64,000 bases of DNA from assembly GCA_963674945.2 (NCBI GenBank), contig CAXXWQ010000004.1:1312001-1376000 (forward strand), in the 5' to 3' direction. Below, one piece after another: positions 26,223-38,498 of the stretch. This DNA comes from an uncultured Desulfosarcina sp. GTDB taxonomy: Bacteria; Desulfobacterota; Desulfobacteria; Desulfobacterales; Desulfosarcinaceae. A program made the translations under genes and the position numbers. Position 1 is the first letter of the stretch. Every line of letters starts with the position of its first letter. Below the pieces are notes generated by a model that had not been told where the DNA came from, searched no databases, and saw nothing but the letters and a program-made list of their open reading frames with translations.

Positions 26223-26271
26223 TGGAGGCGGCAACCAGATTCGAACTGGTGAATGGAGGTTTTGCAGACCT
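26223..26271 (-). repeat. att site: 49-bp duplicate of the 3' part of tRNA-Cys
   Basis: Identical to 38424-38472 (TGGAGGCGGCAACC...TTTTGCAGACCT). Confidence 0.97.
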
Positions 26272-26330
26272 TTATTGACAGCCTGTAAGGGGTTGTTTTT
26301 TCAAGCTGTTTTTATCTCCAGAATTTTGCC

Positions 26331-26353
26331 TGTTGTGGATTTTGATGGGACTT
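26331..26353. repeat. 23-bp direct repeat shared with 38267-38289; candidate integrase arm-type sites
   Basis: TGTTGTGGATTTTGATGGGACTT occurs identically just inside both att ends. Confidence 0.75.
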
Positions 26354-26658
26354 GGTCAAGAGCTTTCACGGCGTTCAATTTATGGTCCGGCGATGGGTGT
26401 TGATACCGCATGGCCATCATTGTTGTCTTGTGCCCCATTATTTCCATTATGGTCTTCAAGTCTGCCCCTGCCATACCAAGTCTGCTTCCGAATGTGTGGC
26501 GTAGGTCATGAAACCGGAAACGGACTGTTTTATTCCCTTCCTTTCTTGTCAATTTGGCCTCTTTTACGGCATACCAAAAGGCATTCGTCAACTGGGTAAG
26601 TTTCCTACCTTTCGAAGTGCAAAACACATAATCGGATTCACTGACATCTAAACGTCTT

Positions 26659-28314
26659 CCTGTTTCCGTGGCACAAAACCTGATTAAAACACTATAACCA
26701 ATTGATAAAACATATATATTATGGTAATATTAGGGCACTAAACGCTCACTTCGGAGGTGAAATCAATGCGGCGTCCGATCACCATAAAACACGAGATGGA
26801 AAAACTTGCCAGTCATAGCGGATTGATCAATATCGGCGCATTACTTGATGCGATAAATTTCAGGTTCCGTTTCGAAAAGATCAACGGCGTCCATTGTGTA
26901 GACCCGAAAATTTCTCATGGTGACATTTTAGCTTCGATGATTGCTCTCATGAGTATTGGTAAACCTGATTACGATGCGATCGAGATTTTTCGTGAGAAGC
27001 AAGAATTTTTCAACAAGGCCATTGGCAATCGTGCATGCCCGTCAAGCCCGACATTGCGTCAGCGAATCGATTTGATCGGCAACCAAGCCGATAAGCTGAT
27101 TAAGGATGCAGGCGTTGATTTGGTTCGATCCTGCGCTCCGGCGATTTCACCCATCCAAACCAGTGCGGGTGATTTCCTTCCTTTGGATATGGATGTGAGT
27201 CCGTTTGACAACTCAAAGACTCAAAAGGAAGGCGTTTCCAGAACCTACAAAGGCACGGATGGCTTCGCTCCGATCTTTGCCTACCTGGGCACCGAGGGGT
27301 ATCTGGTGAATCTTGAGTTCAGAGAAGGAAAACAACACTGCCAGAAAAACACCCCCGAATTTATCAACGCCACCTTGGATTATGCCAGGCAAATTACCGA
27401 TCAGCCTATTTTGATGAGGTTGGATTCAGGAAACGACAGTCAAGACAACTTTCCTGACGATTCACGAAAGAATGTCCACTTTATCATCAAACGCAATTTG
27501 CGTAGAGAATCTGTTCAAAAGTGGGTTGATCTGGCAAAAAAATCCGGCAAGCAACAGCATTGCCGCTCAGGAAAATGTGTATGGATCGGAAAGACGATTG
27601 AAGACATCAACGGCAATCCATTGCGCTACCCAATCATCTTTGAGGTTACCGAAAGGCATACCAAAAAGGGCCAAGTACTGCTGTTCCCCGAGTATCAGAT
27701 CGATACCTATTGGTGCAGCCTCGCACAGTTGCCACCGGATGAGGTGATTCGACTTTATCACGATCACGGTACCAGCGAGCAGTTTCACTCCGAACTCAAA
27801 TCCGACATGGGCCTGGAGCGCTTGCCGAGCGGTCATTTTTCCACCAATAGCTTGATTCTTCATTTGGCGATGCTGACGTACAACATGCTACGGATTATCG
27901 GACAAATCAGCATCGAAGAGAGTGATCCGACTGAATTGCCCGGTATACGCCGGAAGAAAGTTACCCGGCGTCGAATCCGGACAGTCATGCAGGACTTGAT
28001 GTATATGGCCGGTCGATTAGTAACCAGAAGTAGAAAATGGTACATATCCTTTGGCCAACTCAATCCATTTTCCAAACTGATGGATCGGATTTATCTTCGT
28101 CTGAATTTGCTTTCCGCTATGAAGTAGCTATAATTTTTAAAAGAACAATTTTACAGGCATTTGCTTGGTGATTTGCTATGGCTAAAGAATGAGAAACAGG
28201 AGCAAAATTCCTTCGAAATTTGAAAATAGTGAGAAAAATTATCAACAAATGATGGTGTGTGAGGCAATCGCCCCGCGCCAATCCTAACAGCAAAAATTAG
28301 GCCACTGATTCAGG
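26659..28314 (+). mobile_element. IS1380-family insertion sequence, copy 1 (1656 bp)
   Basis: Imperfect terminal IRs CCTGTTTCCGTGG / CCTGAATCAGTGG, 5-bp TSD GTCTT (26654-26658, 28315-28319). Confidence 0.93.
26757..28127 (+). CDS. IS1380-family DDE transposase
   Basis: SHSGL N-terminus, LDMDVSPFDN, RLDSGND, YHDHGTSEQFHSELKSDMGLERLPSG; 456 aa. Confidence 0.92.
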   Translation: MKSMRRPITIKHEMEKLASHSGLINIGALLDAINFRFRFEKINGVHCVDPKISHGDILASMIALMSIGKPDYDAIEIFREKQEFFNKAIGNRACPSSPTLRQRIDLIGNQADKLIKDAGVDLVRSCAPAISPIQTSAGDFLPLDMDVSPFDNSKTQKEGVSRTYKGTDGFAPIFAYLGTEGYLVNLEFREGKQHCQKNTPEFINATLDYARQITDQPILMRLDSGNDSQDNFPDDSRKNVHFIIKRNLRRESVQKWVDLAKKSGKQQHCRSGKCVWIGKTIEDINGNPLRYPIIFEVTERHTKKGQVLLFPEYQIDTYWCSLAQLPPDEVIRLYHDHGTSEQFHSELKSDMGLERLPSGHFSTNSLILHLAMLTYNMLRIIGQISIEESDPTELPGIRRKKVTRRRIRTVMQDLMYMAGRLVTRSRKWYISFGQLNPFSKLMDRIYLRLNLLSAMK

Positions 28315-29150
28315 GTCTTTGTAAAACCTCCTTCAGCGTATCATTTAAAGGGACTTTTCTATTTTCGTGATTTTTGGTATCGGTGGCCAGCAAAAACCTA
28401 CCAGAGAGGTTTACATGGGCCTTCTTGAGATTGAATATTTCCGCTTGCCGTAGGCCGCTGTGAAGAGCCACCATTACCAAATCTCTCAAATATTTCTTTT
28501 TACCTCGTTGTGGGCTTTTTGCGCATTGATCAAGAAACCGTTTTTCCTGCCCCGGTGTCAATACCCACATCTTTTCATTATCTTCTTTCAGCAGCTTCAC
28601 ACCAGAAATAGGATTCGATCTTAAATATCCCCACTGAACGGCCATGTTCAGCATATTTCGAAGTGTGGCCACGTCCCTATTAATTGTTGCCGGAGCCTTC
28701 CCATCATCCCTTCTGAACTTCTTGTACCGCTCGACATCCAACGAGTAAATCGATGTCAAGAGCTTCCCCTTGAAATGAGGCGTCAACATGGTTATCGATT
28801 CCCCATTTCGCCTGGATGAGTTTGGCTTTTTATTCACCTTTGCATGTTCAAGGTATTTTTCGGCAAAGGTTTCAAATAAAATCCGTTTTGCCTTCTGTTG
28901 ATGCTTTCCTTCTTTAACTTCGGTCCTGAATTTACGATCCTCCTCTTTCGCAAAGGTTTTACTGACTTCCCCATGCGCTTTGGTGTACCTCCCTCCATTG
29001 TACCAAAAATCAGAATACCAGCTGTTACCACGTCTATACATGCTGCCTCCTTTTTTTCTAACGCCTGCCGCCCCAGGCGACCGCCTTGTAGGTTTGAACA
29101 CCCTGTAACTATGTATCAAAGAATTGTTTGGGAAGGACGGTGACTTATTT

Positions 29151-29218
29151 GATGAACGAACTTCTCACCGAGTTCTGGCCGCGGAGTGACCAGAAACCGG
29201 TGAAGAAGCAGGTTATCT
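29151..29218 (-). repeat. attC site of integron cassette 2 (68 bp)
   Basis: Minus strand: R'' AGATAAC -5- L'' TCTTCACC -hairpin- L' GGTGAGA -5- R' GTTCATC, with one extrahelical base in L''. Confidence 0.8.
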
Positions 29219-29947
29219 TTGGTTTTGTTTATTGTAAACTTTCATCATTGGAACGATAGTTTTTTCAATATATTTTTCTATTGCCGATGTCATTTCTGCA
29301 TCTGAGTATTTTTGTTTAATTTTGAAAATTTCATACCTACATGAGATGAAATTCAAAATATTGATACCCCATGAGAGGTCCTTGATGAATTTTACCAATC
29401 CTTTTTCCATATCATTGAAAATTTTCTTTTGACTTACTTTGACCCCAAATTGGAAGCTATCATTAAATTTTTGGCTTTGATCTTTAAAAAAATCTTGTTT
29501 TTGTAGGATTTCACCTGTTTTTTTACTTAGTGCTTCAGTATATGAAATTTTACTTAGCTTGTAGGCAACAATCGGTTTAACATTTGACAATTCAAGTATC
29601 GAATTACCAAAGTTTTGTTTAAAGGTTTCATCCACTTCGCGCGTAATTGGTTCAATTATAGAAGTTAAAAATTGAAGACAAAACTGATTCAAGGTGGATT
29701 CATCAACGCTCATTAATTCTTTCAATTTAGGATGTTCTTTCAAACGATTTGAGTATATAGCAATGAAGCTGTCAATATTTTTCAGGACAGAAGTTACGTG
29801 AAGAAGTTTTACAAGATAAAAAATTGATTGGTTAATAATTCTAATTTTTTGATACCGCTCTTTAAGAATAAAACCGGCCCCATTAAGTACCGAACCAACA
29901 AATAAGCCAAGCATACCAATTATTGCAGCTATGATTGTTGTATCCAT
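29213..29947 (-). CDS. Hypothetical protein (integron cassette 2 cargo) with N-terminal TM segment
   Basis: Very AT-rich 244-aa ORF whose stop codon lies inside the attC R'' box (AGATAAC). Confidence 0.8.
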   Translation of the reverse strand: MDTTIIAAIIGMLGLFVGSVLNGAGFILKERYQKIRIINQSIFYLVKLLHVTSVLKNIDSFIAIYSNRLKEHPKLKELMSVDESTLNQFCLQFLTSIIEPITREVDETFKQNFGNSILELSNVKPIVAYKLSKISYTEALSKKTGEILQKQDFFKDQSQKFNDSFQFGVKVSQKKIFNDMEKGLVKFIKDLSWGINILNFISCRYEIFKIKQKYSDAEMTSAIEKYIEKTIVPMMKVYNKQNQR

Positions 29948-29967
29948 TTTAATAATACCTGCTGAAG

Positions 29968-30098
29968 AGATAACGCTTCATTTCACCAGGGCGCAGGCAG
30001 GGAATATTAAGAGCTTTTGATAAAGATAAAGCTTTGATAAATCTATGCACTCCAAAAATGCCATGACCCCTGCGCTCTGGTGGAAATGGTGGTTGGGT
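29968..30098 (-). repeat. attC site of integron cassette 1 (131 bp)
   Basis: Minus strand: R'' ACCCAAC -5- L'' TTTCCACC ... L' GGTGAAA -6- R' GTTATCT; 19/20-nt arms; extrahelical C (G on bottom strand). Confidence 0.87.
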
Positions 30099-30113
30099 GA
30101 TGAATCATTATCA

Positions 30114-30797
30114 TTAAGACTCAAAGTTATTTCCTTTGCCGAGATTACATGCAGAACATTTTGTTTCAAGATTTTCCGGAACGGTTTCGCCACCTTTAGA
30201 CCATGGCACAATATGATCTACATGTAATTCAACTCCTGGTGAATTTAGTGGACTTGCCCCACACTTACGGCATGTGAAACCATCTCGCATAAGAATTCTA
30301 AAACGCAAGCGAAGTGAAATATTTCGTGACGTGCGCTTACGTGGTGGTGTTTTCTTTTCGAATTGTTGATCGACACTATTATCAGGGCTATCACCAGTTT
30401 CAATGTCTTGGTTGATATATTCTACAAAATTATTGAGTGCTTTTCGCCAGCTTCCGAATTTGCTCAGGTATGGCGTAATGGAGCAGTCTGAAATCGGAGG
30501 CTTCATATCTTTTGCTTTAGGTTGGCGACCAAGAGTTATCCAGACTTTCTCAAGGTTTTGAAAAAGATCTTTCTCAGACAGGTTAAAAACCATTCCTTTT
30601 TTTAGACCAGCCTTTTCTATGGTCTTGTTCCAAGAACCGAAACGCTTCATTAATGTATCTGGATGAAACTTACCGTGCTTTCCATACTCTGAGACAGATA
30701 CCGTATCCTTTCCCAGTTTTAAAGCGACCCTATTAAGGTCGGAAATCATTTCCTCAGAAGGGGTATCTCTATGATAAGTTTTCAATTCAAACTTCAT
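30114..30797 (-). CDS. HNH endonuclease with two N-terminal helical repeats (cassette 1 cargo)
   Basis: RDGFTCRKCG...LHVDHIVPWSKGG...NLETKCSACNLGK; repeated FGSW motif (KRFGSWNKTIEKAGL; SKFGSWRKAL). Confidence 0.88.
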   Translation of the reverse strand: MKFELKTYHRDTPSEEMISDLNRVALKLGKDTVSVSEYGKHGKFHPDTLMKRFGSWNKTIEKAGLKKGMVFNLSEKDLFQNLEKVWITLGRQPKAKDMKPPISDCSITPYLSKFGSWRKALNNFVEYINQDIETGDSPDNSVDQQFEKKTPPRKRTSRNISLRLRFRILMRDGFTCRKCGASPLNSPGVELHVDHIVPWSKGGETVPENLETKCSACNLGKGNNFES

Positions 30798-30827
30798 TAT
30801 ATTACGATCATTCCATTTTTTCTGAAC

Positions 30828-30891
30828 ACCCAACATTAATATTCTATAGACGTCTATTTTACGTCCAATATGGGGATGATATCTTGACGTC
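30828..30891 (-). other. Candidate attI-like insertion site
   Basis: G|TTGGGT at 30834-30828 (exact complement of cassette-1 R''), preceded by an AT-rich spacer and three GACGT repeats. Confidence 0.55.
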
Positions 30892-30988
30892 TTGATAACA
30901 CCCTGAATATGGGCAAAAAATAGAAGATTTCACTTTGCTACGTATTTGGAACCGGTTCTTTTTCAGGAAATGATGATTGGAGATTCAA

Positions 30989-31017
30989 AGAATATCCAAA
31001 GGTATTAAATCTGTCAA
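30989..31017 (-). promoter_or_regulatory. Sigma70 promoter facing the cassette array (Pc-like)
   Basis: TTGACA-17 nt-TATTCT about 155 bp upstream of the first cassette. Confidence 0.7.
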
Positions 31018-31097
31018 TCACCGGCTGGTCACAGTACGAACTCTCCAGGACTAAACACCTAAAAATGGCCCGTTATCAAAGGACCACCTCTTTGATG

Positions 31098-31122
31098 ATG
31101 GGGTGGTAAAACACCACCCCAT
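31098..31122. terminator. Hairpin after the C4-controlled gene pair
   Basis: ATGGGGTGGT-AAAAC-ACCACCCCAT perfect 10-bp stem. Confidence 0.5.
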
Positions 31123-31137
31123 ACTACCGTTGTCGGA

Positions 31138-31494
31138 TCAACCAAGCAGATCTTTTAACCTACGGACAGAATTGAAGATTACCTCTTTTGGGTGTTCTTC
31201 GAGTCCACCCGCCAGGTTGGAAAGTTCGGAATAAGTTTTATAGATCTCCGAACCAATTGGACTTTTTAAAGGCACGGTTTCAGCATCCTCGATGGATTTC
31301 ACAGGCAACCTGTTTTCGTACTCATGTTTGTAAAACTCCCAAAGACCATCGCTTAAGGGTTTCAATAGGGGAGCCAAGCTTACGCTTTCGTCTAATCGTT
31401 CGTCAGCACAAAGGACGATTGAATATAGGCTATAGGCATAGCGTCTTATCTCATCCAAATTATCTTCAGGCGATAATAGCTTTTCAAACATCAC
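31138..31494 (-). CDS. Hypothetical protein, translationally coupled to upstream 63-aa ORF
   Basis: 118-aa ORF; start overlaps the upstream stop (GTGATG). Confidence 0.65.
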   Translation of the reverse strand: MMFEKLLSPEDNLDEIRRYAYSLYSIVLCADERLDESVSLAPLLKPLSDGLWEFYKHEYENRLPVKSIEDAETVPLKSPIGSEIYKTYSELSNLAGGLEEHPKEVIFNSVRRLKDLLG

Positions 31495-31682
31495 GCCACC
31501 CCCTTTCCAACACGGATCATGAAGGCAACCGTAGAGCGATATTTCGGACTTTTCGGATCTTCGACGTTGAACAGGTATAGAATACAGCCGAGAGTCTCTG
31601 TTTCGTCCTGAGAACCGATGTATTCAAGGAAAAATGGTGCAATGTTGTGGAGCAGGGACAGGTTGAAAAGAATTTGCTGCAT
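31491..31682 (-). CDS. 63-aa ORF in the icd/kil position, under antisense control
   Basis: AGGAGG RBS overlapping the b2 target site, ATG at 31682. Confidence 0.65.
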   Translation of the reverse strand: MQQILFNLSLLHNIAPFFLEYIGSQDETETLGCILYLFNVEDPKSPKYRSTVAFMIRVGKGVA

Positions 31683-31743
31683 GACGGAACCTCCTTGTGG
31701 TGTGTGGTGAAGGATTACCGCCATCTTTGTCTCCAAACAAAAA

Positions 31744-31820
31744 TGGCGGCGCACACACGGTTGGAGAACCGGCCCACAAGGATACCGGCGAGCCCGAAGG
31801 CTCCCGTATATGCACCGCCA
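31744..31820 (-). ncRNA. C4 (P1/P7)/CI (P4)-type antisense RNA, 77 nt
   Basis: 17-bp closing stem, GAGCC-TTCG-GGCTC hairpin, second hairpin loop CCTTGTGG and unpaired TCTCCAA, each complementary to paired targets upstream and downstream. Confidence 0.85.
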
Positions 31821-32068
31821 AAGTATAAACATAGTACAGAAACAGAAAAACGCCATACTATGAATTGGGCGCTTATGCACCTTGTGGAAAATCCGGTCTC
31901 CAAACCGGGCAACGGAATTTGCCGTTACAGATATATTCATAGTCGATGATAGAAACCGCGTCAAGGCTTTCGACATTTTTAAGGTGGGTGCTACTTCAGA
32001 TAGCCCCCTGGGCTCAGGAGGCACCCAGGAGGCAAAAGGTGGGCAAAGGAGTCAAACACCCACCACAA

Positions 32069-32764
32069 TCAATTATAATTCGGGTTTGGATTGAGCCCGC
32101 GGGGATTGATGGCTTTTGCAATTCCCAACTGCCGATACGCCTCCTTTTCGGCATCCGGTGAGGTGCTCAATTGCCCTCCCTTTGGATTGACTGGTCCTTT
32201 GCAACGGCCCTGGAGATTTCGCCAGTTAGAAACAAACACTTGTCTAAAATCCTCAACAATTTGCCCGTTACGGATTTTAAAATAACCTTGTGGGCTGTGT
32301 TTTTTCAATTGCGCCGTAAGCTGCTCGATAGCCTTATCAATATCTTCAAGCCGTTTTTCGCGCTCGGCGTCGGAGAGGGCCTCCTCATTTTTTCCAGCGA
32401 AGAGTACATCAATTGCCTTTTCCACATCCTCCCAATCAAGCTTGATGCAAACTTTTTGCAACTGTAAATTGCGTGTCGTTCGAATCATTAGCCTTGAAAA
32501 AGGATCATTGGCCGAGCCATTGCCCTTTGCCAAGTACTTTGCCAAATAAGCTATTCTTTGATCTTCATAGGCTTGCCATGATGCTTTGTATCGTTTCAGC
32601 ATATCTTCTTTAGCTGATTGGACCTTTTTGACCTCTGAGCACTTTGAACGAATGAATTTGATTTCATCCTTAATCTCTTGGCATCTTAAAAAATCGTCAA
32701 CCCATTCATATGATGCAAGACTGTCATAATATGGTGGATGGAAGTTATATTTTACGTGTCCCAC
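32069..32764 (-). CDS. Hypothetical satellite protein
   Basis: 231-aa intact ORF with GGGGG RBS and helical/coiled character. Confidence 0.7.
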   Translation of the reverse strand: MGHVKYNFHPPYYDSLASYEWVDDFLRCQEIKDEIKFIRSKCSEVKKVQSAKEDMLKRYKASWQAYEDQRIAYLAKYLAKGNGSANDPFSRLMIRTTRNLQLQKVCIKLDWEDVEKAIDVLFAGKNEEALSDAEREKRLEDIDKAIEQLTAQLKKHSPQGYFKIRNGQIVEDFRQVFVSNWRNLQGRCKGPVNPKGGQLSTSPDAEKEAYRQLGIAKAINPRGLNPNPNYN

Positions 32765-32776
32765 GGTTACCCCCTT

Positions 32777-33067
32777 CTATTGGTTTTCTCGCTCGATATA
32801 AGCCCTATGCACGTTGGGATGAAGGCGGATTACGGTGCGCATGGCGTCCACCTTACCGCAGCCATTGCGCTCCATGTGTTCGTCCACAAGCTGCTCAAAG
32901 GACTTTGTTTCATCATCTTCTGTCCGGTCGATAGGACCGCCTCCGGATTCAAGATAAGCCTTGTGGGCCTCCGGATCGGATCGAACTACGGCTTTCATGG
33001 CCTTGGTCACGCCGCACTTGTGCTTCGTCCGGTACTCTCTGACTTGTGATTGAAAAGACTTACCCAT
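32777..33067 (-). CDS. Small protein made of two copies of a ~40-aa helical repeat
   Basis: SFQSQVREYRTKHKCGVTKAMKAVVRSDPEAHKAYLE / SFEQLVDEHMERNGCGKVDAMRTVIRLHPNVHRAYIE. Confidence 0.75.
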   Translation of the reverse strand: MGKSFQSQVREYRTKHKCGVTKAMKAVVRSDPEAHKAYLESGGGPIDRTEDDETKSFEQLVDEHMERNGCGKVDAMRTVIRLHPNVHRAYIERENQ

Positions 33068-33078
33068 TTTTTTCCTTT

Positions 33079-33630
33079 CTACGAAAAGTCGACTTTAATG
33101 CCAGGGTTGAAGCTTTGTATAAACTCTCGATGAAGTCCGGGTTGCCTCCTGGCAACTTCCTGCATAGCCGAAGTCTTGCTGCATCGTCGTTTGGCCTGGA
33201 TAGTTGCAACAGCATCCATAAAATCGTTTTCATAAACATTACTGGACTGCTCAAGGTCCTTTAACAATCCATCTCTCACTTGTTTGAGCGCACTTACCTC
33301 CCCCGATGTATTCGTTGCCACAAGTCTCAACCCTTGAAACATTTCGTTTTCACCCAGCGCATCCCGGATATTCCTAAATTGATTGAGGGAAAGCCCAGCT
33401 TGTAAAATAGCCTCGAACCGCTCACACTGTTCGGGGCCAACAAAAGCTCGAAGCAATCCGATAATACGGGTTCTCTCGGCTTTGGAACTTGCGTCCCGTA
33501 TCTCCTGGTCGGCCTCCTGACGGGCATTTTCATAGATTTCACGGGCCTCCGCCTCATAAGGTGTCCCAATAAATTGAGCCAGCACGTCATTTTCTGAATC
33601 AGGTTTCTTTGGAAATTCAATTGTTTTCAT
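33079..33630 (-). CDS. Hypothetical protein, possible capsid-scaffold-like
   Basis: Coiled region with AERTRIIGLL and a C-terminal copy of the same ~40-aa repeat. Confidence 0.6.
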   Translation of the reverse strand: MKTIEFPKKPDSENDVLAQFIGTPYEAEAREIYENARQEADQEIRDASSKAERTRIIGLLRAFVGPEQCERFEAILQAGLSLNQFRNIRDALGENEMFQGLRLVATNTSGEVSALKQVRDGLLKDLEQSSNVYENDFMDAVATIQAKRRCSKTSAMQEVARRQPGLHREFIQSFNPGIKVDFS

Positions 33631-33722
33631 GCCTGCCCTTTCTTTTTGGATGGAAAAATGATTTGAAGTTTTTCCCTGATGATATCGAATCGATTCCCAA
33701 AAGTCTGGCAAGCCAGTCCATC

Positions 33723-33953
33723 TCAGTCCACCTCAGTCCCATTTTTTTCATGAATGTACGTCCCATTTTCCAATTGATAGGATTGGATGATTTTGTCGAT
33801 GTATGTATCCAGAGATTTTGAAGTGATTCGGACAGAACTTCCAATTTTGCCGCCTTCAAGCTTGCCAGCAGCCAAGAGTCGCCGGATGGTTTTCGGATGA
33901 CAGCTCAAAATTTCGGCTGCTTCATCAACCGTTAACAATCTTTTCACCGCCAC
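33723..33953 (-). CDS. Excisionase-family (HTH_17) DNA-binding protein
   Basis: LLTVDEAAEILSCHPKTIRRLLAAGKL..KIGSSVRI. Confidence 0.88.
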   Translation of the reverse strand: MAVKRLLTVDEAAEILSCHPKTIRRLLAAGKLEGGKIGSSVRITSKSLDTYIDKIIQSYQLENGTYIHEKNGTEVD

Positions 33954-33988
33954 CCCCTATTTTCTATCCAAAGGGAAAAGCTCGAACC

Positions 33989-34292
33989 ATCGCAAAAGGA
34001 CTTGCGACCATTGTGTGAGGATCGAAAATCCGGAAAAAAGCCCAAAACGTTCTTTTTCTAAAAAAATCCAGTTCCTTATAATATATTACATATATTCTTT
34101 TGCGATGATGCGATGATTTTTCTAGTAAGTTTACTATAGAAAAATGTAAAAAATAGGATTTGGAGTTTATAGCAGGGGTAGTCGCATCCTCGCAGGTGAA
34201 GGGATTGAAAAATGACTTAACAACTTGTAATTTATTATAAAAGTACATTTTTTTAAGATTTTGTCCTATTTTTGATCCCCGCAATCCTCGCA
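33989..34292. other. Candidate replication origin (iterons plus AT-rich DNA)
   Basis: TCGCA/TGCGA pentamers at 33990, 34003, 34101, 34109, 34182, 34190 and 34288 around AT-rich tracts, directly downstream of the helicase gene. Confidence 0.55.
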
Positions 34293-35915
34293 TCATATCC
34301 CGAACGGTGCATCGTCGGCCGTCGTTCCCATCGGCCGACCACCACTTGGGCCAGTTGGTGCCTGATCTTTCCAATTAGTGAGTAAACCGATTCCCCGGTA
34401 CCAAACCAGCCGATCCGGTACTCTTTCAAATCTTTTACCCAGGATCGTCCCGAACCGCTTCTGACTGATCGGCGTGTTGGAAATGTTTTCCAACCACCAC
34501 TCGCTGAAATTGTTGAAAAGATCCTTTGCACCTCCCCAGGCCTCATCATGAACGATGCAATTGGCCGAAAGCCACTCCCCGATCAAATCCTCTTCGGCCT
34601 GGTATTTTGCGGTAGCGTCACGAACCATCGCAGGTGGATCAAGCCCACGCTTCTGCCACTCTAAGCATCCGCGAATCATCCACGCCAAGATTCCACTGGC
34701 CTCGGCTTTGAGCTTTTCCGGCAGCGCCTTGTCCATCGGGAATTCATTGGGGTTTTGCGGATCATGATCGACAAAAACAGCATTGAAGGGTACCAGGTGC
34801 ATACGCCGCCAGAAGGCATAATCGTTGGCCGGCGCCCGTGGTTTGTCGTTGCAAATCAGAACGATCTTATGGGTTGGTGTGAAAGTGATTGGGTGTTTGT
34901 CGTGAGGATTTCTCCCGGTGAGTGAGTCGCCTCCGGTAAACCGTTTGACCGCCGACGCTGAAAACTTACGGCCATCATCGCTTTCGCTGGCCAAGGCCAG
35001 CCGTAAGCCTTTGAGCGCCATTATATCAGGCGAAGGCCCGGCGCTGTTTCTTATTCGGCCCTGGTCAAGCAGCATCTCAGGCTGTAAGACAGACGCGAGA
35101 GGTCCCATGACGTACTTGATCGTTTCGACTTCTGTTCCCTTGCCATTGCGTCCATCACCATAGAAGACCGGAAAAATGTGCTCACTGATATCACCGGTGG
35201 TAAAGTATCCTGCTAACCGCCTATGGTAGTTTTCCATTTCAACCATGGATAAGGTGACATCTTTCAAAAAACGGTCCCAGGTTGGCGCTGGATGATCGAT
35301 TCCTAAAAATTCAATTGGACTTGCCAACAGAATATTGTCTTCCGGCCTGCCTGGTCGCCCTTCTCCAGTTCGTAGGTCGATCACGCAGTTGGCGCAGCCA
35401 AGCAGCATCGGATCACGATCAAGCCTTTCAGACTCAATAACGATTCGATTATATTTGTTATTTGATGCAAAGCTCAGTGTTGATGATCGACCGTGCTCAC
35501 TCCTCAAGCGCTTAACCTGTTTGAAGATTTCGCTCTGGATGCGCTGGTAAAATGCAACCAACTTTTTATCTTCAGCCTCAGTTGCTTCAGAAATTTGATA
35601 TGCCGCGACATGAATCTGTTTGAGAAGCCAAATGACAACATCTTCAACAGAAGCCCGTGCCCTGCCAGTTGTGTCTCTCTTCCAGTGGTGGCCCTGCCAT
35701 TCAAGCCACTCGTCGGAAGTCGCATTGAAAATAAAACGCCCTTCAAACATATCCGCAAAGACCAGCCCACAGAATTGCTCACCACCATTGAGGATGTCGG
35801 TTATCTTGACCGTCCGAACCTGGTTAGCTTCCGGTTCTTCCTGGCCTTTGTCGGCAGCCTCTTCTTGGGCAACGCGGGCTTGAACTTTCCTTTTGATATC
35901 GTCAATCTCACTCAC
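34293..35915 (-). CDS. P4-family/D5-like SF3 helicase (phage/plasmid primase C-terminal type)
   Basis: D5_N-like (WLEWQGHHWKRD, LLGCANCVIDLRTG), Walker A GDGRNGKGT, KRFTGGDSLTGR, CNDKP, FWRRMHLVPF; GTG start at 35915 inferred. Confidence 0.9.
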   Translation of the reverse strand: MSEIDDIKRKVQARVAQEEAADKGQEEPEANQVRTVKITDILNGGEQFCGLVFADMFEGRFIFNATSDEWLEWQGHHWKRDTTGRARASVEDVVIWLLKQIHVAAYQISEATEAEDKKLVAFYQRIQSEIFKQVKRLRSEHGRSSTLSFASNNKYNRIVIESERLDRDPMLLGCANCVIDLRTGEGRPGRPEDNILLASPIEFLGIDHPAPTWDRFLKDVTLSMVEMENYHRRLAGYFTTGDISEHIFPVFYGDGRNGKGTEVETIKYVMGPLASVLQPEMLLDQGRIRNSAGPSPDIMALKGLRLALASESDDGRKFSASAVKRFTGGDSLTGRNPHDKHPITFTPTHKIVLICNDKPRAPANDYAFWRRMHLVPFNAVFVDHDPQNPNEFPMDKALPEKLKAEASGILAWMIRGCLEWQKRGLDPPAMVRDATAKYQAEEDLIGEWLSANCIVHDEAWGGAKDLFNNFSEWWLENISNTPISQKRFGTILGKRFERVPDRLVWYRGIGLLTNWKDQAPTGPSGGRPMGTTADDAPFGI

Positions 35916-36480
35916 GGAGTGCGGCCTCCTTGTACGGACACTGGTTACACCAATCACCGTTTGGGTTGCGGCGGACCACAATTTTGATCTCATCCAGATG
36001 ACCGAGCTCGTCAAGCAGGTGCTCCACTTGTTTTAAGTAGAAGTCGTAGAGCAAATGGCCCTTTTCATGCTTACCGCCGACGATGATAATGGCATCCATT
36101 ATCGTTGTGCGGAACATGGTCTTCAGGCTTGCATCGAAAACCCCAATTGCCATAGCCTGGTTCAGTTCCACTTGAGAGCGCTCGACATACTTGCCTGCAA
36201 GTAGCTTGTTACGCATTTCTTGCTCTTCAGCCTTAGCTAGCAGCAGCCGGTTTTTTAGATCCAGGTTTTCAGTAGCGCTTTTCGGCGGGCGCTTATCGGT
36301 GAAAGGCAGGGGCTTTTTTTTAGCGTATTTGAGAAGGGATTTTTTGGGATATCTCCCACCTACACTTTCGATCAACCCAGGACGCTTGAGGTCTGAATAG
36401 AACGTTGAGCGGCTTACTTTGAACCCCTCGGCTTTCAAAAAAGCAATTGCTTCAGCTGCATTCAGTGTCTCTTCTGTCAT
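35908..36480 (-). CDS. Putative Nu1-like terminase small subunit / packaging protein
   Basis: N-terminal winged-HTH-like region, then coiled coil RLLLAKAEEQEMRNKLLAGKYVERSQV resembling lambda Nu1-type proteins. Confidence 0.55.
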   Translation of the reverse strand: MTEETLNAAEAIAFLKAEGFKVSRSTFYSDLKRPGLIESVGGRYPKKSLLKYAKKKPLPFTDKRPPKSATENLDLKNRLLLAKAEEQEMRNKLLAGKYVERSQVELNQAMAIGVFDASLKTMFRTTIMDAIIIVGGKHEKGHLLYDFYLKQVEHLLDELGHLDEIKIVVRRNPNGDWCNQCPYKEAALRE

Positions 36481-36656
36481 CTGTCCAATTTTCCGAGTTT
36501 TTTAGAAATTTCAAATGGATACGCCGATCGAGCCTTAGTCCGCCGCTCCATGGTATATTCCAGGAAGGACCCGCGAGGTCTACCCATCGATAGCTGTCGA
36601 TGCAGGGTTCATTGACCATTTGGCCGGAGAAAAATATGGGGGCGTGGGGGTTTCTC

Positions 36657-36863
36657 TCACCCATGGTTAAGATCCTCCACTTTGATACCTGGTGCATTCT
36701 GTATCCACCGCACTATCTCCGAGCGAATGAATAGCAGCCTACCGCCCGGTTTCCTGAAGGGTATCGCTCGACGCAATACAAGGTTGCGAACAGCGCCAGG
36801 CGATCTCTGGATCATCTCGGCGCATTGGTTGGTGTCCATGTATTCAGGCGGTAGCTGTTTCAT
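36657..36863 (-). CDS. AlpA/excisionase-like HTH protein
   Basis: YMDTNQCAEMIQRSPGAVRNLVLRRAIPFRKPGGRLLFIRSEIVRWI. Confidence 0.85.
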   Translation of the reverse strand: MKQLPPEYMDTNQCAEMIQRSPGAVRNLVLRRAIPFRKPGGRLLFIRSEIVRWIQNAPGIKVEDLNHG

Positions 36864-36879
36864 TTCCCTTCATCCAAAT

Positions 36880-36929
36880 AAAAAGGCCCGATGACAGAAC
36901 GGTTTCAAACCGTTTCCATCACCGGGCCT
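36880..36929 (-). terminator. Long hairpin plus U-tract just upstream of the alpA-like gene
   Basis: AGGCCCGGTGATGG-AAACGGTTTGAAACCGTTC-TGTCATCGGGCCT followed by a T-run on the minus strand. Confidence 0.6.
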
Positions 36930-36973
36930 GTCAAGAATCCTATAAAAAGGGCTTGAGTGGTATCCGGTACCCG

Positions 36974-37132
36974 CTAAATGGTTCTGGATTTTATATCGAC
37001 ATCAATCTCCTGGGCATGGCGAATCCCGCCTTCGTGAAGCGACAACCGCAAAAAAACTTCACCAGAACGTCTTTTTGATTTAAGTTCTTTTATAAATTCC
37101 ATCAGTCGATCTTCTGGGCTCTTACTCTTCAT
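36974..37132 (-). CDS. Small hypothetical protein (YezD/DUF2292-like pattern)
   Basis: 52 aa, SGEVFLRLSLHEGGIRH. Confidence 0.5.
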   Translation of the reverse strand: MKSKSPEDRLMEFIKELKSKRRSGEVFLRLSLHEGGIRHAQEIDVDIKSRTI

Positions 37133-37170
37133 TTCACAAATCCCCTTTGAATTTTGAACCTTTCTAACTA

Positions 37171-37404
37171 TCAAAAAATCTTTTCAAGATACTTGTTAGC
37201 AGCATCTTTGTTTGGGAATACATAGCAAAGTAGGCCATTAGCACCGGATTTCTTGATCTTTTCCCACTGTCGTTCCCTTGCCCACTTCGCAATAACGGGA
37301 CCCTCATAACTTGGCCTTCCGGTTTCAACATTAAAAATGTTGGAAGTGATATATAAATCTTGTGAAAGCCCCATCAAGAAGCCCTTAGTTAATTTGCCGT
37401 GCAT
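37171..37404 (-). CDS. Small hypothetical protein
   Basis: AAGGAG RBS, 77 aa. Confidence 0.55.
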   Translation of the reverse strand: MHGKLTKGFLMGLSQDLYITSNIFNVETGRPSYEGPVIAKWARERQWEKIKKSGANGLLCYVFPNKDAANKYLEKIF

Positions 37405-37432
37405 GATTATCTCCTTTAATGCAGCGACTTGG

Positions 37433-38167
37433 TTATTTACTGTAAACAACCTTGTGAATTTCGTCGATGAAATCCCATCCGATTTCTTCAAATGTTCGCT
37501 CCCAAAAAGCATCTTCATCGAAATACATTTCGATTTGGTATTGAACATCCGAAACAGCCTTCCCAAGATTTAAGGCATGTGCCAAATCCTTGGTTTTGAG
37601 GGTTTGAGCCATAAGCATTAATTCTACGAATTCATCCGGAACCCTTTCAAAACTATCTTTTTCAATCACAGGGAAGCTCAATATCGTATTATGACCCTTC
37701 CAGTCTTGCTCAGAACAAAACCAAAGAAAAACACTACCATTTGGCTCCATTTCTTTCATTTTATTGAAAAATTTAGGTTGAATGATTTCCTTCTCTTCCG
37801 GTGACGCATCCAGATGGTCCGTTAGAAAATCCCATAGCGCACTGATTATGGTAAGTTTATGAATAATACCCTTTGATTCAGCATACCCTATTAATTTGAC
37901 AAGCTGTTTTTGGTCTATTTCGTCGATCATTTTGGCAACGGTTTTTCTGTCAAATCCAGAAGTCTTTAAGGTCTTGAACACCCCCAACTTATATAGGTCA
38001 TTTATTCCAAGCGTATGCGCAGGCCTCCCACGGCCACCAGACTTTTCACCTTCCTTTGGTTCGACGGCATCAAGGAAGCCAAGCCACTTGTTCAGCTCGT
38101 TTGTTGAAAGACTCAAAATGGCTTGAGCCTCTTTTTTGGAATATGTTCTAGAAAAGTCAAAACTCAT
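37433..38167 (-). CDS. MerR-like HTH regulator
   Basis: TYSKKEAQAILSLSTNELNKWL...GRGRPAHTLGINDLYKLGVFKTLKTSGF. Confidence 0.7.
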   Translation of the reverse strand: MSFDFSRTYSKKEAQAILSLSTNELNKWLGFLDAVEPKEGEKSGGRGRPAHTLGINDLYKLGVFKTLKTSGFDRKTVAKMIDEIDQKQLVKLIGYAESKGIIHKLTIISALWDFLTDHLDASPEEKEIIQPKFFNKMKEMEPNGSVFLWFCSEQDWKGHNTILSFPVIEKDSFERVPDEFVELMLMAQTLKTKDLAHALNLGKAVSDVQYQIEMYFDEDAFWERTFEEIGWDFIDEIHKVVYSK

Positions 38168-38362
38168 GATTTTTTCTCCACTCTGGATATTTAATAGACC
38201 ATCAAATAGTCATAGTCAAGTTTTTTTATCCAATGCGGATATTAATTAAAAATAGATAGGCTGAGGTGTTGTGGATTTTGATGGGACTTCATCGGCGAAA
38301 AGGGTACTTTTTGAGTATTTCTGTACTCTGAGTGATGTTTGCAGGTGAGAACTATGAAAAGC

Positions 38363-38389
38363 AAAAGGAGCCTTGTAAAGGCTCCTTTT
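38363..38389. terminator. Bidirectional intrinsic terminator downstream of the tRNA operon, inside the element
   Basis: AAAAGGAGCCTT-GTA-AAGGCTCCTTTT. Confidence 0.8.
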
Positions 38390-38423
38390 CTTTATAAATA
38401 TTCGGAATTTTGGGGCTTAGTTT

Positions 38424-38498
<75 letters not shown>

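Follow-up and report, generated by a model that had tools for sequence, protein, structure and literature searches.

On the minus strand of the 64,000-nucleotide stretch of DNA analysed here (the window), an integrated island most probably carries a complete C4 cassette of the P1 type, which is predicted to keep two ORFs (ORF1 and ORF2) off through pairing at the ribosome-binding site (RBS) of ORF1. A preliminary description of this DNA had proposed a C4-type layout and an antisense switch, and this proposal was supported by the match to the Rfam C4 model, by the agreement with the geometry of phage P1 and by the covariation found among related cassettes.

The mechanism itself is already known from P1 and P7, as is heteroimmunity by code differences, and the switch in the window is a further member of the known C4 system, in a lineage where C4 is uncommon in the samples. 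The present addition is a panel of 21 naturally occurring cassettes. Across this panel, each of the two recognition words varies together with its targets and the words appear to reassort, and one genome contributes two cassettes with different codes. The panel makes the specificity rules of C4 directly testable and provides candidate orthogonal RNA switches. In addition, we flag a family of ~60-aa domains that has no name (176 clusters) and whose contexts point to early phage-host conflict.

Layout of the cassette and its C4 RNA

All positions that the preliminary description had named were confirmed by direct reading of the minus strand, and the elements of the cassette, the two ORFs and the island are as follows.

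31936..31964, minus strand: predicted sigma70-type promoter, TTGACG-17 nt-TATGAA, with a weak -10 and conserved spacing
31843..31928, minus strand: IsrK/seqA-like leader with a 5' hairpin, the a1 hairpin, b1 and a terminator-like hairpin (Rfam matches below the cut-off)
31903-31897, minus strand: target a1, TTGGAGA, capping a CCGG stem (direct read; fold)
31887-31880, minus strand: target b1, CCACAAGG (direct read; covariation panel)
31846..31874, minus strand: predicted terminator-like hairpin and U-tract directly 3' of b1, with b1 overlapping the rival stem
31820-31744, minus strand: C4 antisense RNA, 77 nt, Rfam RF01695 (Rfam match and fold)
31781-31774, minus strand: b', CCTTGTGG, in the P3 loop of C4 (Rfam model, direct read, alignment test)
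31767-31761, minus strand: a', TCTCCAA, in an unpaired junction of C4 (Rfam model, direct read, fold, alignment tests)
31716..31749, minus strand: 15-bp competing hairpin, built partly from the 3' strand of C4, with a2 at its tip (fold)
31736-31730, minus strand: target a2, TTGGAGA, at the tip of the competing hairpin
31700-31693, minus strand: target b2, CCACAAGG, running into the AGGAGG RBS (overlap region 31690..31700)
31682, minus strand: ATG start of ORF1 (direct read)
31491..31682, minus strand: ORF1, 63 aa, of a family of alpha+beta domains that occurs in phages and mobile elements and has no name (paralogs, clusters, structural model)
31138..31494, minus strand: ORF2, 118 aa (start GTG 31494) or 117 aa (start ATG 31491), overlapping the stop of ORF1
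26223..38472, minus strand: satellite-like island of 12.2 kb, integrated at the 3' end of tRNA-Cys (att repeats)

The Rfam scan that the preliminary description had put forward as a check identified a full-length member of the C4 family (RF01695; 70.2 bits against a cut-off of 45, E 1.2e-11, full model 1-87 at 31825-31739). The features of a C4 element were present, i.e., an RNA of ~77 nt with three stems, a1-b1 on the 5' side, a2-b2 on the 3' side and b2 at the RBS; all four pairings in the window were perfect, and ORF1 and ORF2 were both open. As few as two of the four target sites occurred together in only 6 of 200,000 shuffled versions of the flanks, and the C4 score lies above the Rfam cut-off, so that chance is excluded.

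The predicted fold of the 77-nt RNA had an energy of -50.8 kcal/mol (z -6.9), and none of 200 shuffled sequences was as stable. The earlier claim that this RNA exposes both recognition words held for a', which was fully unpaired in the folded RNA of the window, but less well for b', which was partly paired in the minimum-energy fold but is drawn as a 12-nt loop in the Rfam consensus. Likewise, the targets had been placed in stem loops, and a1 does lie in the CCGG stem and a2 on the competing hairpin, but only ~4 of the 7 nt in each were predicted to be unpaired in the window. The competing hairpin itself was stable in the window (-22.3 kcal/mol, z -6.5) and its fold had z values of -2.3 to -6.8 across 21/21 cassettes; in a column-based test it was 62% paired, which did not exceed the value of the shuffles, since the pairing register is not constant from one sequence to the next. 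When the whole leader was folded at equilibrium, the words a' and b' and the targets a1 and b1 were all buried (mean unpaired 0.03-0.17), and the model therefore needs processing or co-transcriptional folding of the RNA.

The TTGACG promoter of the preliminary description (-35 box at 31964-31959, minus strand) was not called by a consensus promoter scan, which called TCGAAA-16-TATCAT at 31973-31946 instead, but we favour the former because the spacing of TTGAC is conserved among the cassettes (59-62 nt 5' of a1 in 18/21). From this promoter, transcription would start near 31930. The leader that follows matched the Rfam models isrK (RF01394; 44.9 bits, cut-off 50, E 2.4e-8) and c4-a1b1 (RF03163; 25.4 bits, cut-off 46.7, E 4e-4), both at the expected place.

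The terminator-like hairpin and U-tract after b1, an element absent from the list given in the preliminary description, were kept in 21/21 cassettes and in P1 and P7 (23/23). With b1 blocked, 14 of these 23 loci showed a gain of more than 0.1 in predicted terminator probability; in the window this probability rose from 0.92 to 1.0, the terminator being, by prediction, already 92% formed without C4. The consensus scan did not call this hairpin.

In the immI c4-icd-ant region of P1 and P7 (RF01695, clan CL00128), the elements follow the order a1-b1 / b'-a' / a2-b2, as in the window, and both phages also have a 77-nt three-stem RNA, a promoter ~60 nt before a1, b2 over the start region and a short first ORF overlapping the second. 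When the P1 sites (promoter, a1, b1, C4, a2, b2 and icd) were taken from the GenBank annotation, the spacings in P1 and in the window were, respectively, 60 and 61 nt from the -35 box (of promoter P1c4 in P1) to a1, 14 and 16 from a1 to b1, 74 and 67 from b1 to C4, 77 and 77 for the RNA, 29 and 36 from a2 to b2, and 18 and 18 from b2 to the ATG. The codes differ from that of the window, being TTGACAG (a) and GTTAGTGA (b) in P1 and TTAGCAG (a) and GATTGTGA (b) in P7, and the excerpts of PMC5320573 and PMC12197685 explain the heteroimmunity of P1 and P7 by such differences. The P1 a word also occurs in four cassettes (L007, L008, L012 and L048), combined with different b words. The cargo of the two phages is Icd and Ant, whereas that of the window, which has one predicted promoter, matches neither; and P1 and P7 are plasmid prophages, whereas the window holds an integrated 12-kb island, likely in a Desulfosarcina-type sulfate reducer.

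The resemblance to the P4 CI RNA with its seqA/seqC targets, which had also been pointed out, applies to the flanking targets and the leader hairpin. As compared by description, P4 shares with the island of the window the small size, the integrated, satellite-like state, the P4-family primase/helicase domain and a terminator-like leader hairpin, and its processed RNA pairs on both sides, as by analogy the RNA of the window would. However, the parallel with P4 is looser than that with P1, since the replication genes of the island sit upstream of the cassette and not under it: in P4, CI halts transcription of the replication genes (excerpt of PMC4825925), whereas in the window these genes lie 5' of the cassette and ORF2 appears to be the last gene of the operon. 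The isrK-orf45-anrP region of Gifsy-1 (RF01394) is paralleled by the isrK-like leader hairpins, which score below the cut-off, by the coupled short ORF pair and, in sister cassettes, by antirepressor-type genes; the window is without an AnrP-like gene.

Covariation of the recognition words and occurrence of the cassettes

A search with the leader pattern in which the a word was left free gave 85 candidates; 14 of them had a C4-like RNA on the 3' side and the other 71 were dropped. The final panel held 21 distinct cassettes, with the duplicates L015, L017 and L024 and the truncated L063 excluded. The Rfam C4 cut-off was passed by all ten additions from the pattern scan and failed by L006, one of the first eleven cassettes.

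Within the panel, a' and b' matched the cassette's own a1 and b1 in 18/21 cassettes, as opposed to 1/420 foreign pairings, and the own a2 and b2 in 19/21, as opposed to 2/420. At b1 a cognate run of at least 7 pairs was found in 21/21 cassettes. In a permutation test of the cognate matches, 0 of 20,000 permutations reached the observed count and none exceeded 7, although such counts overstate the significance because the cassettes are related. The first pairing parser had taken the best 7-mer in a search interval as a2 and had required a CCT/AGG core, and the pairing test was therefore redone on an alignment of 20 cassettes (L006 omitted). Here, 98% of cells were paired for a'/a2 and b'/b2, with 62 two-sided changes, compared with 33-53% in slid controls; for a1/a', 97.9% were paired, with 36 two-sided changes (20 cassettes). 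Moreover, among the 21 cassettes 15 different a words and 10 different b words formed 20 combinations, which makes chance implausible despite the relatedness. At the level of sequence, these results establish the family membership, the geometry and the complementarity of the cassette: the pairing of C4 with its targets is real and all four pairings covary.

Two exceptions were found among the 21 cassettes, L054 and L006, in which a2 was mismatched to the own a'. In L054 (1827-2065), a2 and b2 (TTGACAG and CACAAAGG) belong to another code than the own a' and b', and this cassette is likely a recombinant that would be poorly repressed by its own C4.

The window had been credited with its own specificity code, which is accurate for the a word TTGGAGA, unique among the 21 cassettes, but not for the b word, which is shared with L011 and L016. 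The second cassette of the same genome, L002, has TTGGCGA as its a word and ACCGAGG as its b word, and L011 combines the b word of the window with the a word of L002; a and b words therefore appear to reassort. For the two islands of this genome, the predicted duplex energies of the a words were -8.2 and -9.5 kcal/mol in cognate and -3.7 and -3.8 kcal/mol in crossed combinations, and those of the b words -13.5 and -12.1 as against -5.1 and -4.1 kcal/mol. The two C4 codes are predicted from these energies to be orthogonal, and since the a and b words vary independently, the C4 RNA of the window would not silence the second island.

The Rfam C4 model was matched in 2 of the 151 genomes sampled from the phylum and in 6 of the 65 genomes of the family, all six belonging to the host genus (6/31 genus genomes). 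These frequencies are lower bounds, since only 27-56 candidates were scored per genome. C4 is uncommon in the phylum sample and recurrent in the host genus. A profile search of the own genome found no third cassette, a narrow C4 pattern scan of the genome_contigs set returned 2 loci, one of them a chance match, and in 401 genomes of the order the leader pattern occurred only at the two own-genome sites. A literature search on C4 under Desulfo- names gave no 'c4 antisense' paper among the matches listed, and earlier deltaproteobacterial records are possible; the table of Weinberg 2010 gives C4 for 'Proteobacteria, phages' and the alignments carry accessions only.

The controlled ORFs and their island

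The ORFs of 63 and 118 aa that had been described were both present, with the start of ORF2 overlapping the stop of ORF1, and we infer that the two are translationally coupled. Neither had a match in Pfam, PHROGs or NCBIfam. ORF1 had no match among phage records, and when compared with the cargo of the known systems it matched neither Icd and Ant nor HTH proteins, whether by family, by sequence or by fold. The structural model of ORF1 (pLDDT 85) comprised one helix and three strands and no HTH; a fold search of 48,161 PDB chains gave a best Z of 5.2 and only generic helix-plus-meander matches, there was no viral match at E<=0.001, and the sequence had no match among solved structures. A word search recovered only ORF1 itself and the Atlas search gave no usable match.

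However sparse these matches, ORF1 is, by its sequence relatives, a member of a real gene family. Three paralogs with 48-53% identity were present in the own genome, the family had 12 members in 5/31 genus genomes, and the 176 clusters recovered by a profile search (E<=0.001) were mostly small stand-alone proteins, most family members being stand-alone and 53-100 aa long. ORF1 differs from the family consensus at H45. No C4 cassette accompanies any of the three own-genome paralogs; two of them are the first gene of early operons of Mu-like prophages, with a repressor on the opposite strand, and a PHROG-supported divergent repressor was found at 4 of the 11 non-window members (L106, L107, L112 and L116). 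Other members adjoin a RecE-type exonuclease, an integrase, a Cro-like gene or a methyltransferase. L106 and L107 (G000:C4:1792000-1831999) are related Mu-like early regions ~20 kb apart that have different repressors opposite the ORF1 paralogs. In L108 (8956-11576), the ORF1 paralog lies ~600 bp from a cas1-like gene of a type I-F-like CRISPR-Cas locus and directly 5' of a DNA methyltransferase-like gene.

The ORF1 domain also occurs inside polyvalent proteins of 890-3946 aa. Among the 40 family members scanned, the large proteins carried LPD38, ART-PolyVal, tail lysozyme or methyltransferase domains, and a single protein (P0034, 250 aa) had the ORF1 domain fused to Tad6, which is an anti-Thoeris protein (excerpt of PMC13728456); the 23 small members scanned were all uninformative on the role (one has DUF5661). 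The largest protein, of 3946 aa (L127:619-12459), combines the ORF1 domain with a Strawberry-notch-type helicase, PBECR1 and LPD38. In occurring within such large proteins the ORF1 domain resembles the polyvalent-protein domains of phages and conjugative elements, which the excerpt of PMC5512222 describes as early-infection conflict effectors; it differs from them in that no Pfam model covers it and most of its members stand alone. The occurrence of ORF1 relatives in prophage early operons, in polyvalent proteins and in the Tad6 fusion hints at a role in counter-defence, and on this context we favour an early-acting counter-defence or host-modulating protein over a classical antirepressor as the most likely identity of ORF1.

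The preliminary description had regarded the two ORFs as silenced, toxic, antirepressor-like or helper-interfering proteins. Silenced phage-type ORFs are plausible in view of the ORF1 relatives in prophage early operons, but the antirepressor part found no support: besides the lack of a family match and of an HTH in the ORF1 model, antirepressor-type Pfam domains (Bro-N, Rha, ANT or P22_AR_N), which were found in the first or second gene of 8/21 cassettes (37 downstream ORFs scanned), were recognisable in 0/8 host-genus cassettes as against 8/13 others. As for ORF2, a word search and a search of 65 family genomes recovered only ORF2 itself, and no relatives were found in viral contigs. ORF2 is weakly similar to a 76-aa family located behind C4 in L009 and L011 (hhalign 49.8%, E 1.7e-4, 39 columns).

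The island is bounded by 49-bp direct att repeats (26223-26271 and 38424-38472) that duplicate the tRNA-Cys 3' end. A scan of its 17 ORFs identified two HTH_17 proteins, a primase/helicase with a P4-family C-terminal domain (TIGR01613), a weakly matching terminase small subunit (E 3.5e-4), an HNH protein and two integrase pieces; no capsid family matched any of these ORFs, and the scan of the helicase ORF gave no N-terminal primase domain. The traits of PICI/P4-like phage satellites are present, i.e., att sites, an (interrupted) integrase, HTH regulators, a primase/helicase and no full virion module. The integrase is split by an IS1380 element (window ~26660-28300), and this copy of the island may therefore be stranded. 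Since the genome holds 26 near-identical copies of the element, one of which also interrupts the methyltransferase-like gene in L108, the break is probably recent. The helicase and HTH genes lie 5' of the cassette on the same strand and the HNH nuclease (30114-30836, HNH_repeat domains) has its own predicted promoter at 31017-30989, so that the C4 operon probably comprises two ORFs.

The HNH nuclease is possible defence cargo of the island. A perfect 23-bp direct repeat just inside both island ends (26331-26353 and 38267-38289) is possibly an arm-type site of the integrase. Assembled contigs confirmed the DNA here as a single piece of 9,292 nt that was free of differences, and the same runs may be its source; the four runs listed for it, all from a single study, include no RNA run. 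The depth of the island equalled that of the flanks in two runs spanning it, and no reliable excision joint was seen in the assembled contigs; a 12-kb skip in one run was distrusted as an excision, its 21-nt side lying inside the att repeat. In a check for CRISPR self-targeting, none of the 30 spacers parsed, which cover the type I-F array in part, gave a convincing match.

Proposed action of the switch and alternative readings

In the preferred model, a single promoter would make a leader-C4-ORF1-ORF2 transcript from which C4 is likely cut, as it is by RNase P in P1. C4 would then bind a2 and b2 on new transcripts and block the RBS of ORF1, and through the coupling ORF2 would be blocked too. 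It would also bind a1 and b1, favour the terminator after b1 and in this way limit its own synthesis. Upon entry into a cell without a matching C4, a short pulse of ORF1 and ORF2 would be followed by shut-off. The processing and the repression are proposed here by analogy with P1, P4 and Gifsy-1, for which the mechanism is taken from the excerpt of PMC4825925. A bolder extension, to which we give little weight, is that C4 serves the mobile elements of sulfate reducers as a two-word combinatorial address (20 a+b codes in 21 cassettes, independent words and orthogonal copies in one cell) that times a pulse of counter-defence proteins of a new family on entry into a non-immune host and does not control an antirepressor.

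Another conceivable reading, although a doubtful one, retains the same switch and makes ORF1/ORF2 an Icd-like growth inhibitor or an unrecognised antirepressor or inducer of the island or of a co-resident prophage. The control of icd-ant by P1 c4, the antirepressor-type genes of the sister cassettes and the ORF1 paralogs in the early operons of two Mu-like prophages of the same genome are consistent with such cargo; however, ORF1 resembles neither Icd, Ant nor HTH proteins, the host-genus cassettes are without known antirepressors, and a domain embedded in polyvalent proteins of 900-3900 aa would be a poor fit for an antirepressor. It also seems unlikely that the active small RNA is the IsrK-like leader, which would turn the genes on by pairing with the C4 sequence in the long transcript, as is reported for Gifsy-1. 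Activation in trans is reported in the excerpt of PMC4825925, the terminator-like hairpin could release an ~85-nt RNA, and the isrK match of the leader, together with the L039 leader that passes the isrK cut-off, would fit; yet the score in the window stays under that cut-off, and the same pairings explain activation as titration of C4, which makes the leader reading compatible with the main model and not a replacement for it.

We consider it still less probable that the cassette is a leftover, stranded in an island that can no longer move, and that it now regulates nothing that matters. The split integrase, the helicase ORF without a detected N-terminal primase domain, the equal depth of island and flanks and the departure of ORF1 from its consensus at H45 would agree with this, but the four perfect pairings, the two open ORFs and the probably recent break argue against decay. 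Finally, a co-option of C4 to regulate host mRNAs in trans, as the excerpt of PMC5320573 proposes for Acinetobacter C4-like RNAs, appears highly improbable: outside the cassette the genome has only 2 a-then-b matches, neither of them followed by AGGAG, and it is the cis targets that covary with C4.

Several sister cassettes have features of their own. The L002/L003 cassette (G000:C3:2421889-2421972 and downstream) is followed by at least 7 coupled short ORFs, including two paralogous pairs, and belongs to another element, which encodes a primase and a helicase. L056 has two same-strand Rfam C4 matches ~900 bp apart (962-1048 and 1881-1967), one of which entered the analysis. In L047 (2217-3798), the C4-controlled ORF is directly followed by an intact-looking integrase and a tRNA, which suggests that C4 may control integration in this element.
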